This document shows, piece after piece, positions 3,050 through 52,760 of a DNA stretch of 64,000 nt. The first letter of the stretch is position 1, and every line of letters begins with the position of its first letter. The translations under genes and the position numbers were made by a program. The stretch lies in contig OX597834.1 of assembly GCA_951406725.2 (NCBI GenBank), forward strand, positions 7,936,001 to 8,000,000, written 5' to 3'. Origin of the DNA: Octopus vulgaris. Its lineage: Eukaryota. Under the pieces are notes generated by a model. It saw only the letters and a program-made list of their open reading frames with translations. It was not told where the DNA came from and did not search any database.

Positions 3050-3185
3050 TAAATAGTTATGCATATATAGAGAGATACATGTACATATGTAAAAAAACAC
3101 ATTTATATACACATATGAATATATATATATGTATGTATGTATGTATATTTAAAAATATATAAATATATATATATACATACATAAT

Positions 3186-5435
<2,250 letters not shown>

Positions 5436-5437
<2 letters not shown>

Positions 5438-6780
5438 ATGTTACATTACTCGGTAGTCAAGATAAAACTCTGAGTTTCAGAGTTTCAGATGCCGAAGTGG
5501 AAATCCACAACACCATCTCTTCGGTTATCTGGCTATTTGAAAACGTTATGAAAAAATACCGTTAAAAATGAAGGGAAATTACTCTGTTATAACTCTGCTT
5601 TGCCTGCGTACTTATACATCGCTCGCATTTTTCGTCATAAAAATTATATAAAATACATAAAAATATATAAAAATATATAAAAAATATATAAAATCTTCTT
5701 GGGACATAACACAGAAAGCATGTTCTATCCGTTTTCTTTAGGGGACCAAAAACGTAACAGAAATTTAGTCACATGTGGGCATGATCCGAAAAGCTCTGTC
5801 CTTGTATTTAGACATGTGGTAGGGTCTAAGCTGCTTTTCCAGATAAGCCATCTCTCCATGTCGCATAAACCGCACCTTCCGCTGCCGTTAGTGTAGGGCT
5901 TACATATGGCCAAAATCTTCCATTGTATGTTATAATCGACACCTTTATCTCTTAAAGACCAAATATGATTGGATAATTGTGTCGCTTTTCTTTGTTCCAG
6001 TGCCTAAAGCTCAAAGTGTGGTTATTGAACCTGGCCTTGAAATTACCCTCTGTCAGGCCCACGTATTTCTTCGTCGAAACGGTGTCTTTAGTGGTTATAG
6101 AGTTTACGGTAGCTTCATATATGATGGTCTTGGACATGCAAGCTCCATTTAGCGGGCACAATTCTTTATTCCTGCATGAACAGCTGTTTTCTTCTTGTGT
6201 TTTTTGTATGTTATGATTGATTATGTTTTTAAAATTGGTAGTTGAACTAAAACTAATTTTTAAATTGTGTCTATTGAAGAGTTTCCTATAAGCATGGTTA
6301 ACTGGAAAATGTCTATCTATCAGTGCTAGGAAATATTTACCTATATTGAAGGCCACCTTGGGTGAGTAAGGGGGCGTAAACCAGATGACCTTCCTATTTC
6401 TATTATTCCTTTTCCTTACTGTTGGGCTGGTGATAGGTGTATATTTTATTTTTTCGCTAAAACCACTATCTTTTAAAGCTTTATTATAAACTGGGGCAAC
6501 GCTATTGAAGATGTCCTCATTAGATGAGAGGCTAGAAATCCTCTTACTAATATTTTTAACTAAATTTTTGAATACTATAAGGGGATGGCATGAACCTACA
6601 TTAATATAACTTAGTCTATCATTGGGCTTCCTATAAGGCTTATAAATATTATTATTAAGATCTAAGGAAACGTCTAAGAAATTGACAACCGTCAGGTTAG
6701 AGTCTATAGTTATACTAAGTCCGAAGTGTTTCATTAACTGGATAATATCCTTCCTAAAACGATCTTGTGCTGGTCCATTT
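5436..6780 (-). mobile_element. 5'-truncated Penelope-like retroelement (RT C-terminus + GIY-YIG), possibly Naiad-like; frameshifted
   Basis: ORF 5952-6734 (VNFLDVSLDL, YRKPND..YI..GSCHP, IWFTPPYS, CSCRNKELC, IIY..YVGLTE..FKARFNNH) continues out of frame into ORF 5725-5913 (CGLC..LN.R.E...CPH); bounded by (TA)n. Confidence 0.9.
5460..5530 (-). ncRNA. Type I hammerhead-like motif with long stem III in PLE tail
   Basis: Minus strand: agataa-CCGAAGA-gatg..catc-t-GAA-actctga(aac)tcagagt-T-ttatct. Confidence 0.65.
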
Positions 6781-6805
6781 CTTTTGTTATCTTACCGTTT
6801 TATCA

Positions 6806-7439: not shown

Positions 7440-7615
7440 AGGAGCTTCTACAGGACTAGAACTGTTTCATTCAAGAGAAATCTTCAGGAAGCTTCTGAAT
7501 ATTTCTCGAATGAAACAGTTCTAGTCCTGTATCCTTCTATATAATAAATTAATTTTACTCTGCTATGTATTGAGTACCTTATTTACTGTGGTTAACCCCG
7601 ATTCAACCCGGGACC
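7434..7615. mobile_element. Short foldback element with HHR-like cores, between (TA)n tracts
   Basis: Palindrome 7434-7541 centred on aagctt (7489-7494); minus strand CTGAAGA..GAAAC..GTC. Confidence 0.6.
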
Positions 7616-7744: not shown

Positions 7745-8048
7745 AAAGAAATGAGGTACTTAGAAATTCTGATGCTTTTATATTTACAGATATGTATTTG
7801 CATATTATATTACATTTTTTATACATCATATAACTTAGATCATATATTAGTGCTTTCTCCCATTCTAGTGGGGTTTTCAAATCGAGGGGTTTTCAAATCG
7901 AACTGAGACTTAGTTCGATTTGAAAACCCCACTAGAATGAGAGAAAGCACTAATACATGATCTAAGATATATGATGTATAAAAACATGTAATATACAAAT
8001 AGATATCTGTGAATATAAAACCATCAGAATTTCTGAGTGCCTCATTTC

Positions 8049-8052
<4 letters not shown>
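7745..8052. repeat. About 300-bp foldback inverted repeat
   Basis: agaaatgagg.act.agaaattctgatg...ttcaaatcgaact / agttcgatttgaa...catcagaatttctgagtgcctcatttct; centre near 7907. Confidence 0.85.
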
Positions 8053-14734: not shown

Positions 14735-15189
14735 GTATAGTTGCATACATATGTTACACTATGGTCTTTCTTTGTTTCCATGTAGCAAATCCACTTGCAA
14801 GGCCTTTGTTAGTTTTAGGCTATTGTAAAATATATCTACTCCTCTTGCCACATAACAGAACTGAACTCAAACCATATAGTGCTTAGAATCTTATGAGGTC
14901 TCACCGTGATGAAAGCTCGGATCACTGGATTCACATTCGAGAATTTACAACCATTTCACCATGCTTGTTTATTTTAAATGTTTGTGTCCAAAAATACAAG
15001 AAGATTTTAGTAGACGCTCGGTAAACATTTCGTATACCTACTTCCCCAATATCAATGATATTATCTCTCTCGAACCATGCCAGGAATCCACTCCCATTTG
15101 CAACTGTCGCGACCATGCGGTTTGCTTTCTCAATTGAGCATGTTTGATAAACTCAGTTGTTTATGCAGCAGAAGACACCTCAGTGCTCA

Positions 15190-15495
15190 CATATAAGGCA
15201 ACCCATAAGAAAAATTACGTCGGTTTATGCGAAGGAAATTATTAAAAGCCGACACGTTGATAAAAATAATGGCATCAAATTGCATCGGTAAGTACGGGAT
15301 TTGAAGAACAACTGCACACTGCATGCAATGAAGTGGAGAAGCGTGGGAATATCAACGCCATATATAAATGGAACAAAAATATGAAAGTAATGCCTAGCAG
15401 AAAGATGGCAGAGTCTTTTTAGAACCAAGAACACCACCACACTATTTAATTCCAAATCTGAAATCTTTAGCAAATGCAAACATGGGAATAATTTT
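15190..15495 (+). pseudogene. Degenerate PLE GIY-YIG/C-terminal remnant
   Basis: Fragments KNYVGLCEGN, TPYINGTK, LFNSKSEIFSKCKHGN parallel the C-terminus of the 5436-6780 element; stops and frameshifts. Confidence 0.65.
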
Positions 15496-15856
15496 TTCGT
15501 CGAACCGGTTTCAGCCGCTGTCTCGCAGACAATGGAAATGCCACCGTTATATTATTCTACAGCAACGAGATTAATTATGATTTCCACAGAGGAAACGGAG
15601 ATCTTGGTTTTCAGTTCTTTCATCTCATTCCACTTTTTGCATCAACCTTCTCATTCTTGTTCACAATTTCTTGTGGGCCGAAGTCTGGTTTTCCAATTGC
15701 TCTAACGGTAACTACTGAATCTCATAGATTGCTTGGCAACACAGACTACGTTATATACATCTGACAAATTATCATAGTTCTTCGGGAAATAGACTACTAG
15801 CTGCTCTGTACATATTAAATTATATATATATATATATATATGCATGTGTGCGTGTG

Positions 15857-20650: not shown

Positions 20651-20654
<4 letters not shown>

Positions 20655-20933
20655 AGAATGGAGCTGAACGAAGATTTAACAAAATTCCTTTATTTTATTT
20701 TCGACATATGTTTCGATGTCTGCAGACTTCGAAACATATGTCGAAAATAAAAATCTTCGTTCATCCATTCTTCTATATATATATTAAATTAAACTTCAAA
20801 TTTCCGCACTAAGTCACGGAGTTTATGCCCTATGGTCGTAACTTCAACCGTGCTTTTTCTGTTGTGAGTTTGCTACCCAAGTATCGGTTATCTTTCGAAT
20901 TATCCGTAATAAGATAATTCATTTGTCTACTTA
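20651..20933. mobile_element. Family H1 element, foldback form
   Basis: Hairpin 20651-20775 of the HHR 3' half (cgaaacatatgtcgaaaataa) plus reverse complement of the H1 5' end (20840-20933). Confidence 0.75.
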
Positions 20934-24131: not shown

Positions 24132-24209
24132 TTGTTTAAATATATATATATATATATATATTTGTTTAAATATATATATATATATAAATATATTTAAACA
24201 TATATTGTG

Positions 24210-24508
<299 letters not shown>

Positions 24509-25580: not shown

Positions 25581-25681
25581 TGCTAATCTTGTGGCAATGT
25601 TTGAAACTAATATTTATTTGACACTATGACTCATTATTTCAGTGATAGTTAATAAATATATATATATATATATATATATAA

Positions 25682-25782
25682 AGTTAATCCAAACAAGAAA
25701 ACAAAAACAAAAAACCCAACAACGCAAGGACGTGGAACAAATAAAGTATTATTGGACGCTCAGGAAAGAAGGGAAGAAGGAG

Positions 25783-25820
<38 letters not shown>

Positions 25821-26005
25821 ATCCGAACACAATCCAAACATGAACAAGCAAGAAAAAACAACTGTAGGACATGGAATAAGTACAGTGTTATTGGACACTC
25901 AGCAAAGGAAAGAAAAGAAAGATGATATCACGTTTCGAACGGAGCTCGTCATCAGAAATATAGAAAAATCCAAAGTGGGAAAGATGGAGAAAGAAGATCG
26001 CCAAT
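25682..26005 (-). mobile_element. Two family H3 fragments; HHR-like motif at about 25925-25960
   Basis: Minus strand CTGATGA-c-gagc(tcc)gttc-GAAAC-GTG; 25682-25785 is the reverse complement of about 24311-24410. Confidence 0.7.
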
Positions 26006-26058
26006 GATACATACGCGGTACATACATACATACATACATACATACATGCATACATACA

Positions 26059-30634: not shown

Positions 30635-31025
30635 TTCCTGAAGCTGCCGCTGCTGTGTTACAACTGCTACTGCTTCTTTTACTTCTGAAATCATTTATTA
30701 ACTAGCGGTAACTCTGAAAAAACTACAAGCTACACTTAAGATCAACAGTGGCTACTGTGGCAACACAGAGTGGGCATACGTATCACTGAGGGATCCAGAT
30801 CTCTTTTTCTTATGTTAAGTTTTCCTGTTCCGTCCATTGGTTTATAACTTCAGTGTTGTGTTCACCGAAGATTTTGCGTAAAATTTGAAACCGCATATGC
30901 TAGGAAATGGATTGTATGTGCGATTCAAATGGCCATCAGAGTCTAACAACATTCTTCCATGTTGATTCAGTCCAATAGTTTTAATAATATAAGGTACATA
31001 TATCTTGGAATGCTCAACCATAATT

Positions 31026-31454
31026 GTCTTCCCAATAGCAACATATGGATGCGAGACCTGGACACTAAAGAAAGCTGACCAGAAGAGAATTAATGCATTC
31101 GAGCTTTGGTGTTGGAGAAGACATTTACGGATACCATGGATAGGGAGGCTCACCAATGGAGAAGTTCTTAAGCAGATAAGGCCGAAAATGACGCTAGAAG
31201 CTAGGGTCACCAAGCATAGATTGGCATATTTCGGTCATATTATGCAGAGAAAATCCCTGGAGAAGGACATCATGCTCGGAATGGTCAGTGGTAAGAGAGG
31301 AAGAGGCGACCAAGAACCCGCTGGCTTGACACCATCAAGAGTGATACCGGAATGGATATAGCCAATTTGAAAGAAGCGGCTCAGGATAGAACTGACTGGA
31401 GGACAATGATCCAACGAGTGACCGAGAGTCGACTTCGACTGAGTGGATAGAGAG
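31026..31454 (+). mobile_element. RTE (BovB-like) LINE 3' fragment with 6-bp TSD
   Basis: VFPIATYGCETWTLKKADQKRINAFELWCWRR.LRIPW...YFGHIM..SLEKDIMLG..GKRGRG; ataatt at 31020-31025 and 31455-31460. Confidence 0.92.
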
Positions 31455-34724: not shown

Positions 34725-34955
34725 TTTCTTTACTACCCACAAGGGGCTAAACACAGAGAGGACAAACAATGACAGACAAACAGATTAAGTCGATTATATC
34801 GACTCAGTACGTAACTGGTACTTATTTAATCGAACCCCGAAAGGATGAAAGGCAAAGTCGACCTCGGCGGAATTTGAACTCAGAACGTAGCGGCAGACGA
34901 AATACCGATAAAGATTTCGCCCGGCGTGCTAACGATTCTGCCAGCTCGCCGCCTT
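34725..34955 (-). mobile_element. SINE family A, full length
   Basis: Minus-strand head ggcggcgagctggcagaatcgttagcacg; B-box-like gagttcaaattcc; tail ccccttgtgggtagtaaagaaa. Confidence 0.9.
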
Positions 34956-35018
34956 ATCGTATGCATGCGTGGAGTACAAATCCCAAATTTCATTCAAAAT
35001 AGCTTTATTATAATAGAC

Positions 35019-35232
35019 ACGTTAGCACGCCGGGCGAAATGCTTAGCGGTAATTCGTCTGTTGTTACATTCCTAGTTCAAATTCCGCCGAGGTCGACTTT
35101 ACCTTTCATCCTGTCGGGGTCGATAAATAAAGTACCAGTTTCGCACTGGGGTCGATGTAATCGAATTAATCTCTTTCTCTGTCCTTGTTTGTCCCCTCTA
35201 TGTTTAGCCCCTTGTGGGTAGAAAAGAAATAT
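35019..35232 (+). mobile_element. SINE family A, inverted relative to the neighbouring copy
   Basis: Reverse complement of about 34725-34933. Confidence 0.9.
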
Positions 35233-35337
35233 ATTCATCTATTACCCCTTTATTTCTCATTCATATGACGCTCTCTTTGCCATTTATCTCCTCTAACTTC
35301 ACCTCTCACTCTGGCTCTAGTGTATGTATGTATAATA

Positions 35338-35410
<73 letters not shown>

Positions 35411-35413
<3 letters not shown>

Positions 35414-35670
35414 TAGTTAAATGAATTATCTTGTTATGGATAATTCGGTTAACCGATACCTGGGTAGCAAATTCACATCAGAGAAGACACGTTTGAAGTT
35501 ACGTGCTTTCGTGTGCATCTTGATGTTGACATAAGTTCCTTGGTTTTCCTGACGAGAAGGCGGCATAATATACTCCTTATTCCTTCGCAATTAGTAATAT
35601 GCCGCCTTCGAAACATATGTCGAAAATAAAGGAATTTTGTTAATTCGTCGTTCAACACCATTCTTTCATA
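35411..35670 (+). mobile_element. Compact family H1 element in (TA)n
   Basis: Both ends homologous to the 4307-5399 element; long (TA)n on both sides. Confidence 0.8.
35544..35626 (+). ncRNA. Canonical type I hammerhead ribozyme motif
   Basis: Stem I ttttc/gaaaa; CTGACGA 35549-35555; 12-bp stem II gaaggcggcata/tatgccgccttc; GAAA; stem III ac-atat-gt; GUC triplet ending at 35621. Confidence 0.88.
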
Positions 35671-35677
35671 TATTTAT

Positions 35678-35794
<117 letters not shown>

Positions 35795-48977: not shown

Positions 48978-49916
48978 TATTCTTTTCTACTCTGGGAACA
49001 AGGCCCGTAATGTTTTAGGAGGGGGCCAGTAAATTAGATCGACTCCAGTACGCAACTGGTACTTAATTTATCGACCGGAAAGGATGAAAGGCAAAGTCAA
49101 TCGCGGCGGAATTTGAACTCAGAACGTAAGGACATGCGAAATACCTATTTCTTTACTATCCACAAGGGGTTAAACACAAAGAGGACAAACAAGGACAGGA
49201 AAGGGATTAAGTCGATTATATCGACCCCAGTGCGTAACTGGTGCTTATTTAATCGACCTCGAAAGGATGAAAGGCAAAGGCGACCTCTGCGGAATTTGAA
49301 CTCAGAACGTAAGGACAGACGAAATACTCATTTCTTTACTACCCACAAGGGGCTAAACACAGGGAGGACAAACAAGGACAGACAAACGGATTAAGTCGAC
49401 CTCGGCGGAATTTGAACTCAGAATGTAAGGACAGACGAAATACCTATTTCTTTATTACCCACAAGGGGCTAAACACAGAGGGAACAAACAAGGACAGACA
49501 TAGGTATTACATCGACCCCAGTGCGTAACTGGTACTTAATTTATCGACCCCGAAATGATGAAAGGCAAAGTTGACCTCGGCGGAATTTGAACTCACAACG
49601 TAACGCAGACGAAATACCGCTAAGCATTTCGCCCGGCGTGCTAACGTTTCTGCCAGCTCGCCGCCCTAAACAGACGAAATACCTATTTCTTTACTACCCA
49701 CAAAGGGCTAAACACAGGGAGGACAAACAAGGAGAAACAAACGTATTAAGTCGATTATATCGACCCATAGTGCGTAAATGGTACTTATTTAATCGACCCC
49801 GAAAAGATGAAAGGCAAAGTCGATCTCGGCGGAATTTGAACTCAGAACGTATCGACAGGCGAAATACCGCTAAGCATTTCGCACGGCGTGCTAACGATTC
49901 TGCCAGCTCACCGCCT
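48978..49916 (-). mobile_element. Tandem multimer of SINE family A units
   Basis: About five partial units rejoined at gacgaaatac|ctatttcttt. Confidence 0.9.
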
Positions 49917-52029: not shown

Positions 52030-52760
52030 GGCACAAAGCCATTGATTTCGAGACAGAGGATAAGTTGAGTACATCAATCACAGTACTCAGCTGGTACTTA
52101 TTTTATCCACCCCGAAAAGATGAAAGGCAACGTCGACTTCGGCAGAATTCGAACTCACTACGTAAAGACGGACAAAATACCTATTTCTTTACTGCCCGCA
52201 AAGCGCTACAGTCAGAAGGGACAGACAAGGACAGACAAACGGATTAAGCCGATTACATCGACCCCAGTGCGTAATGGTACCTATTTAGTCGATCTGGGAA
52301 GGATGAAAGGCAAAGTTGACCTCGGCGGAATTTGAACTCAGAACGTAACGGCAGACGAAATACCTATTTATTTATTACCCACAAGGGGCTAAACACAGAG
52401 GGGACAAACGGATTAAGTCGATTACATCAGCCCTAGTGCGTAACTGGTACTTATTTAATCGACCTCGAAAGGATGAAAGGCAAAGTCGACCTCGGCGGAA
52501 TTTGAACTCAGAACGTAACGGCAGACGAAATACCTATTTATTTATTACCCACAAGGAGCTAAACACAGAGGAGACAAACAAGGACAGACAAACGGATTAA
52601 GTCGATTATATCGATCCCAGTGCGTAACTGGTACTTATTTAATCGACCCCGAAAGGATGAAAGGCAAAGTCGACCTCGGCGGAATTTGAACTCAGAACGT
52701 AGCGGCAGACGAAATACCACAAAGCATTTCGCCCGGCATGCTAACGATTCTGCCAGCTCA
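52030..52760 (-). mobile_element. Second tandem multimer of SINE family A (about four units)
   Basis: Same junction at about 52180, 52365 and 52535; single head at 52700-52760. Confidence 0.9.

Follow-up and report, generated by a model that had tools for sequence, protein, structure and literature searches.

A 260-bp hammerhead-bearing insertion between (TA)n runs in Octopus vulgaris as a probable two-armed stump of a Hydra-clade Penelope-like element

The described systems that come closest to the locus reported here are the Hydra-clade Penelope-like elements (PLEs), which, in the consulted parts of the study describing them, target (TA)n, carry canonical hammerhead ribozymes near the 3' end and include one Octopus family (PMC8557442). 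The same source gives the motifs RWK, DKT, CxCx5C, CxxC and CxH as diagnostic of the clade, and its hammerheads combine a short palindromic stem III with a stem II that is often long. Insertions of PLEs are reported to be frequently 5'-truncated and to carry, at the 5' end, a second truncated copy in inverted orientation, with a one-sided tail; the tail is optional and usually 30-40 bp long, and the junctions feature palindromes or microhomology (PMC3846280, in the sections consulted). In vitro, the protein of an anole PLE cuts and extends both target strands and reverse transcription starts at two internal sites bounding the tail; the hammerhead of that element needs the protein for cutting and is dispensable for insertion in vitro (PMC11167929, also a partial source). 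The role of PLE hammerheads has been called unclear in the published PLE work consulted. For O. vulgaris, the available part of the literature counts 190 Penelope-like families, amounting to 6.83% of the genome.

We analysed a stretch of 64 kb of O. vulgaris DNA, hereafter the window, in which the locus (35411-35670) has two relatives, designated E4 (4307-5399) and E20 (20652-20932). We propose, with a probability of roughly 0.85, that the locus would be a stump-sized insertion of a Hydra-clade PLE family with its arms joined head to head, a reading that rests on sequence and on analogy with the insertions described above. The ribozyme of the locus is in itself a known, ordinary feature of PLE terminal repeats. 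An initial annotation had instead seen a retrozyme-like family, and the part of that proposal which survives is a high-copy, (TA)n-inserted, PLE-mobilised repeat; the part which does not is the compact non-autonomous unit, given the two arms, the lack of a tandem arrangement and the existence of a coding relative. That the locus comprises about 260 bp between two (TA)n runs (Table 1), with no credible coding capacity, was correctly recognised there: the longest ATG-started frame spans 62 aa, and a profile search returned no PLE-profile match within the locus.

Table 1. Features of the locus and of its relatives E4 and E20, in window coordinates.
Feature	Position	Strand	Evidence or remark
Left (TA)n target run	35323..35410	.	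contigs continue into (TA)n before 35412: 26 in run X3, 4 in X7
Tail arm, 5'-truncated, 104 nt	35412..35515	-	aligns with tails 4307-4464(-) and 20774-20932(+)
TGTG microhomology common to both arms = inversion junction	35512..35515	.	contig ends and depth trough
Ribozyme arm = 5'-truncated PLE terminal repeat (pLTR)	35512..35669	+	117/158 identical to 5237-5396
Stem I 5' strand including long extension	35525..35548	+	pairs with 35622-35644
Stem I, proximal 5 bp plus one G-U	35544-35548/35622-35626	+	
Core CTGACGA (CUGACGA in RNA)	35549-35555	+	pattern search
Stem II, 12 bp, 30-nt loop	35556..35609 (strands 35556-35567/35598-35609)	+	12/12 Watson-Crick
GAAA	35610-35613	+	
GAA, 2-bp stem III with palindromic ACAUAUGU, C17	35610..35621	+	predicted cut between 35621/35622
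Right (TA)n target run	35668..35791	.	TA-rich loose ends behind 35669 in contigs
E4 full tail, 158 nt, after repeat end	4307..4464	-	alignment
E4 inverted repeat end	4465..4513	-	47/49 identical to 5348-5396; begins at first base past ribozyme cut
E4 C-terminal remnant, Hydra-type GIY-YIG endonuclease	4514..4790	+	one in-frame stop; CxxC, E, N, CxH
E4 hammerhead, core intact, stem II decayed	5271..5352	+	5/12 stem II pairs broken in alignment with locus
E20 inverted arm	20652..20722	-	palindrome with + arm
E20 truncated repeat end (to 20773), then tail 20774-20932 (159 nt)	20723..20932	+	

The two relatives, which the initial annotation had placed at 4307-5399 and 20651-20933, are borne out by alignment, although E20 is without a complete ribozyme: 20931-20652 matches the locus at 67% over 280 columns (E 1e-29), 5237-5396 at 74% (E 2e-24) and 4307-4408 at 77%. 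In both E4 and E20, sequence matching 35412-35505 comes after the 3' end of the ribozyme-bearing repeat and on the same strand, as an extension of 158-159 nt (the tail) that ends at (TA)n; at the locus, the ribozyme and this tail sequence are on opposite strands. By this comparison the locus is two back-to-back arms of opposite sense, not one colinear unit, and the tail-arm sequence probably belongs to the 5' UTR of the element. In each of the three window copies one arm is inverted and 5'-truncated, the breakpoints vary and the tail is confined to one side; each copy is inserted in (TA)n, as are the loose ends seen in four runs of contigs. The E20 palindrome is centred at 20722/20723, in the 3' strand of stem II, with 1 mismatch in its first 30 pairs, and since the E4 arms are 47/49 identical, the endonuclease remnant between them falls inside one insertion of the family. 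The inverted ends of E4 and E20, the TA flanks and the deletion-like same-strand joints described below could also be produced by a DNA-type miniature inverted-repeat element, or by a colinear repeat with random internal deletions, the hammerhead being incidental. We find this barely credible: the inverted arms vary in length by copy and the tail is attached to only one of them, E4 encloses a retroelement endonuclease rather than a transposase, and the core of the ribozyme is conserved.

Contigs of four public runs (X1, X3 and X7 from organism A, X4 from organism C) were aligned to 35411-35670 at 80% likeness, yielding 1388 contigs from X1, 1872 from X3, 89 from X7 and 1065 from X4, with detail taken from 32 of 4447 pieces and 24 of 193 loose ends. 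Run X7 is RNA by guess, and its contigs, being contigs only, have no bearing on expression or cleavage. Depth drops in a sharp trough at 35483-35527, which no piece spans among the 32 of 4447 listed; 8 of these 32 start at 35512, and the contigs of each arm run past the junction into a continuation of their own. Because ribozyme-arm contigs start at 35512 and tail-arm contigs end at 35515, the arms overlap by TGTG. On reaching 35515 the tail-arm contigs enter the tail sequence seen at 4446-4458 (runs X4 and X7), and some contigs contain ~20 nt near 35504 that the tail arm of the locus lacks; loose ends at 35436, with depth on both sides, indicate that the tail forms with and without a 10-nt piece are both abundant. 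The upstream loose ends of ribozyme-arm contigs resemble, by eye, the E4 3' UTR at ~5217-5240, and one X7 contig of 689 nt continues for ~590 nt beyond 35512, with no second such piece listed. Both outer ends adjoin TA-rich sequence. Summed contig depth is not copy number, and hence only "high copy" is claimed for the family.

Among the joints from other copies, all twelve that keep to the same strand differ in their pair of breakpoints (35432-35515 to 35554-35643), another one switches strand within the ribozyme, and none of the 13 listed returns to an earlier place, an absence that is weak evidence since repeat contigs are short and few pieces are listed. These joints bear on the reading of the locus as a non-LTR retrozyme monomer, that is, a colinear unit of ~260 nt that would be transcribed, cut by its hammerhead, circularised and re-inserted. 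Its size lies within the 170-400 nt of metazoan retrozymes (PMC7229834, consulted in part), it has a type I hammerhead with a 2-bp stem III, a palindromic loop and strong folding, and solo monomers are known in retrozyme families, according to the consulted part of a preprint (bioRxiv 2026.07.22.740005). However, there is no tandem repeat at the locus, the TCGAAACAT motif occurs four times in the window and never head to tail, and the joints do not go backward, as far as short contigs allow; moreover, the halves are of opposite sense in both relatives, the junctions are variable and one relative is coding. The retrozyme reading fails on both features tested, tandem arrangement and a fixed colinear monomer; it is largely refuted, and we regard it as very improbable.

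The link of the PLE-stump reading to the Hydra clade comes chiefly from E4. Its segment 4514-4798(+) matches positions 606-701 of a 704-position profile (E 5.8e-17) made from 62 full-length homologues (690-760 aa, drawn from 114 matches) of a neighbouring PLE, and tblastn aligns the E4 remnant to that neighbour at 5976-5773 (E 7.5e-8). The majority sequence of the homologues displays RWK, DKT, CxCx5C, CxxC and CxH; the CxCx5C linker is also found in the neighbouring element, and E4, truncated before RWK, DKT and CxCx5C, retains CNIC..E...N...CKH, which is the Hydra-type CxxC/CxH flanking E and N. A HMMER search with the E4 peptide hit 340 library proteins at E<=0.001, its top match (P0001) being a repetitive artefact, and none of the 15 candidates that a word-index search of proteins proposed for the 71-aa E4 peptide was confirmed; Pfam offered no useful name for 12 homologues and none for the neighbouring PLE, the 10 homologue clusters had no named protein among the members listed, and a metagenome scan with the neighbouring PLE protein gave 279 pattern matches, of which none was confirmed. 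A terminal repeat with a hammerhead downstream of the ORF is found in E4, where the ORF is represented by its endonuclease end only, ~480 nt from the ribozyme and with a (CA)n tract between the two. The locus itself is truncated before any ORF and its subfamily is 74% identical to E4. The initial annotation had allowed that the consensus might be only the known terminal repeat of an annotated PLE, and this is nearly what was found, endonuclease coding sequence lying upstream of the E4 ribozyme.

The window contains further PLE remnants. A second 5'-truncated Hydra-clade PLE occupies 5434-6805(-) (profile positions 356-701, E 1e-97 and 3e-20) and has a degenerate hammerhead, with CCGAAGA at 5524. 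Its 3' end and E4 meet tail to tail at a common (TA)18 run, 5398-5433. This PLE resembles Hydra-1_Obim, and its peptide KPNDRLSYIN appears once in the consulted part of the PMC8557442 supplement, in Hydra-1_Obim. The third remnant, at 14991-15510(+), is decayed and comprises Hydra-type linker and endonuclease sequence (E 1.5e-10 and 1.4e-8); pattern search found no hammerhead there. At 3153-3551(+) there is a GIY-YIG remnant with C..C and H..H motifs (Pfam PF01541, E 4.2e-5) that probably derives from another PLE clade. Repeat ends with minimal-hammerhead-like motifs between (TA)n runs are seen at 24281(+) and 25955(-), within ~24205-24412 and 25680-26010, the 25955 copy with inverted arms around a TA run; these copies are probably stumps of a further PLE family. 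Hammerhead-core-like motifs also occur at 7487(-) and 9280(+), the former ending ~60 nt before a (TA)n run. At ~7780-8050, a long imperfect palindrome with a near-perfect core (7846-7954) and a 16-nt duplication has a one-sided extension to (TA)n, the same inverted-plus-tail layout, and no recognised ribozyme. An abundant SINE-like repeat forms tandem arrays at 49277-49500 and 52233-52718, with periods of 116 and 184 bp, and is also found at ~34800-35220; from its look we take the abundant SINE of the window to be octopod. The fragment 30993-31361(+), without a Pfam match, resembles the C-terminus of an RTE-type LINE ORF.

We suggest that the insertions of the family arise as follows. The element would be ordered as an RT-endonuclease ORF, a 3' UTR, the hammerhead, a first fixed end 48 nt after the ribozyme cut, a tail of ~158 nt and a second fixed end. 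As may be extrapolated from published PLE work, the element protein would nick the (TA)n target on both strands, and two cDNAs would be primed from element RNA at two internal start sites, corresponding to the two fixed ends, on opposite strands. At the locus, cDNA synthesis would have halted early, after 158 and 104 nt, and the products would have been joined head to head via TGTG. Synthesis of the tail arm having ended within the tail, the arms would share no sequence, and hence the insertion would mimic one colinear 260-bp element. E20 would represent the same event joined at the stem II palindrome, and E4 the same with a longer plus arm. The ribozyme would travel as a passenger of the terminal repeat, and full-length tandem transcripts would probably be cut as a dimer via the palindromic stem III, or with protein help. 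Against the PLE-stump reading, no coding sequence is attached to the locus copy or was seen in its own subfamily, a full-length copy was not encountered, the same-strand joints might conceivably reflect deletions within a colinear unit, and the tail, at 158-159 nt, is four to five times as long as the published 30-40 bp.

The last codons of the tail read D-N-S-F-x-Y in 3/3 copies and resemble Hydra N-termini; the N-terminal score of the tail end is 10.0 bits, which is not significant (null mean 8.1, maximum 16.8), and the tail considered as an ORF start has no profile match. These codons are relevant to the possibility that the source of the family is a dedicated non-autonomous Hydra derivative, shortened or start-less, that is moved in trans by the same insertion mechanism. 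Such a source is compatible with the PLE-stump reading and concerns autonomy only. No ATG stands directly before D-N-S-F-x-Y in any of the three tails, and without an in-frame ATG before the terminal codons a non-autonomous master is possible; furthermore, the E4 form of the tail owes an ATG to a 10-nt piece that is absent from the locus form, both forms being abundant, and PLE derivatives of this type are on record in the part of the preprint consulted (bioRxiv 2026.07.22.740005). However, the codon resemblance to Hydra N-termini is within the shuffled range, E4 does carry coding sequence, and the contigs point upstream, with loose ends matching the E4 3' UTR by eye and the 689-nt X7 contig extending ~590 nt. 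We therefore view a dedicated non-autonomous source as possible, though rather unlikely. As a separate observation, a splice-acceptor-like motif (CTGAY..polypyrimidine..CCAG/GT), identified by eye at 35445-35460(-) and at the equivalent positions, is intact in two copies of the tail and altered in E20; introns in PLE 5' UTRs are known (PMC4209133, consulted in part).

Judged from its sequence and predicted folding, the type I hammerhead at the locus is a real motif, beyond chance, with a predicted cut after C35621. The CUGANGA, GAAA and UH core and three stems are all present, and the complete type I core that had been annotated is the sole strict match in the window on either strand; 100 dinucleotide shuffles gave 0.04 matches per window, none of them with a stem II of at least 8 bp. 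Stem III is, as annotated, minimal and palindromic, with 2 bp around AUAU. Stem I, annotated with 5 bp, has those pairs plus a G-U and reaches ~22 bp in its extended form (35525-35644). The 260 nt fold with a z-score of -4.18, and for 35525-35645 the ribozyme-constrained fold (-37.4 kcal/mol) is 3 kcal/mol above the minimum (-40.4 kcal/mol). Rfam hammerhead families, put forward as a check in the initial annotation, produced no match at E<=10 on the 260 bp and none among the 150 of 155 window matches listed, which the long stem II and its loop may explain. The palindromic stem III, with a self-duplex of -7.0 kcal/mol, would suit dimer cleavage, by analogy with the consulted part of PMC4209133; the lone locus copy would probably cut weakly, if it is transcribed at all.

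The perfect 12-bp stem II is confirmed for the locus and is partly private to it. In run X1, C35603 is A in 295,854 of 296,505 depth, and with this A in almost every other copy, the typical stem II is interrupted by a G-A mismatch after its sixth pair. At core position 7 almost all other copies have U (contigs of four runs), and no other core position changes at >=5% in the contigs. The 5271-5352 copy had been said to keep the core with a different stem II; with an overall identity of 74% it retains 14/14 positions of the core and stem III (0.74^14 = 0.015), and its stem II is indeed decayed. Variant sites affect 1/62 core, stem I and stem/loop III positions, compared with 7/35 free ones (Fisher p 0.003, or 0.051 with stem II placed among the constrained positions), in a test that counts subfamily and private differences and not independent events. 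These figures suggest that the ribozyme looks conserved within the family. Stem covariation, also proposed as a check, gives 1 two-sided and 5 one-sided kept changes versus 11 broken pairs, of 36; with two aligned copies only, covariation support is not claimed.

It is also conceivable that the family leaves genomic fossils of in vivo cleavage, in that RT would run off hammerhead-cut RNA and truncations would pile up at 35622. The inverted arm of E4 begins with the very base that follows C17, and of the 12 joints in other copies two, each containing filler letters, map to 35622 and 35623; the chance of such joints, chosen after the fact, is 0.03-0.05 (+-1 nt) or 0.07-0.12 (+-2). However, the E4 junction may owe its position to imperfect homology, the 24 of 193 loose ends listed contain no pile-up at 35622, and the anole study, in its consulted part, found no ends at the cut (PMC11167929), so that we deem the cleavage-fossil reading doubtful. 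If true, the tens of thousands of possible copies, with RT start sites 158 nt apart, would make the role of PLE hammerheads testable from the genome. The distribution of truncation points could show whether PLE hammerheads cut their template in vivo.

With the Hydra clade and its member Hydra-1_Obim, as covered by the consulted parts of Craig et al. (2021; PMC8557442), the family shares (TA)n targeting, a C-terminal endonuclease with CxxC and CxH, and a hammerhead near the 3' end, ~45-50 nt from the terminus (~45 nt in Hydra-1_Obim); one published entry has a 5'-truncated inverted copy, like the locus, and the 16 nt just before the start codon of Hydra-1_Obim (from Octopus bimaculoides) agree by eye with 20896-20911 at 15/16. 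In contrast, the ribozyme sequence of the locus is neither that of Hydra-1_Obim nor that of any Hydra row of File S2, GAAACATATGTC has 0 occurrences in the consulted part of the supplement, and stem II (12 bp, 30-nt loop) and the extended stem I are longer. Because its ribozyme differs from that of Hydra-1_Obim, we take the family to be a different one, of the known Hydra kind. The suggestion that it may be undescribed is upheld to the extent that it is absent from the File S2 Hydra rows and that a literature search found no description, though its kind is already published and the O. vulgaris repeat library (Zenodo), Repbase, Dfam or bioRxiv supplements may hold it.

Adineta Penelope (PMC3846280) and the anole Poseidon PAc (PMC11167929), as far as the consulted sections describe them, share with the locus the head-to-head arms, the one-sided tail, the two fixed outer ends and the palindrome or microhomology at the junction. 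They differ in a tail of 30-40 bp, against ~158 nt here; in addition, the tail arm of the locus is cut inside the tail and leaves no visible inverted repeat, unlike in those systems, and the ribozyme cut, at which a few junctions of the locus family fall, coincides with no read end in PAc. The PLE terminal-repeat hammerheads reported by Cervera and de la Pena (2014; PMC4209133, consulted in part) are likewise of type I, with a long helix II and a small palindromic helix III, and are mostly solitary or, in truncated copies, in opposite orientation 100-700 bp apart, and the locus is alike; its hammerhead differs from theirs in a much longer stem I and in having no extra unpaired base before stem II, and since helix III is present it is not a strict min-HHR. 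Metazoan non-LTR retrozymes (PMC7229834; bioRxiv 10.64898/2026.07.22.740005), in the parts consulted, resemble the locus in being non-coding, of similar size, equipped with a type I hammerhead and akin to PLE terminal repeats, but the locus is neither in tandem nor colinear and has a coding relative. Hammerheads in PLE terminal repeats, (TA)n targeting by Hydra elements and an octopus Hydra family are thus already in print, and the locus counsels caution, since a shortened tail arm can make a PLE stump pass for a retrozyme monomer. The locus adds modestly to these known systems: a family of high copy number whose tail is unusually long and whose ribozyme is well formed.
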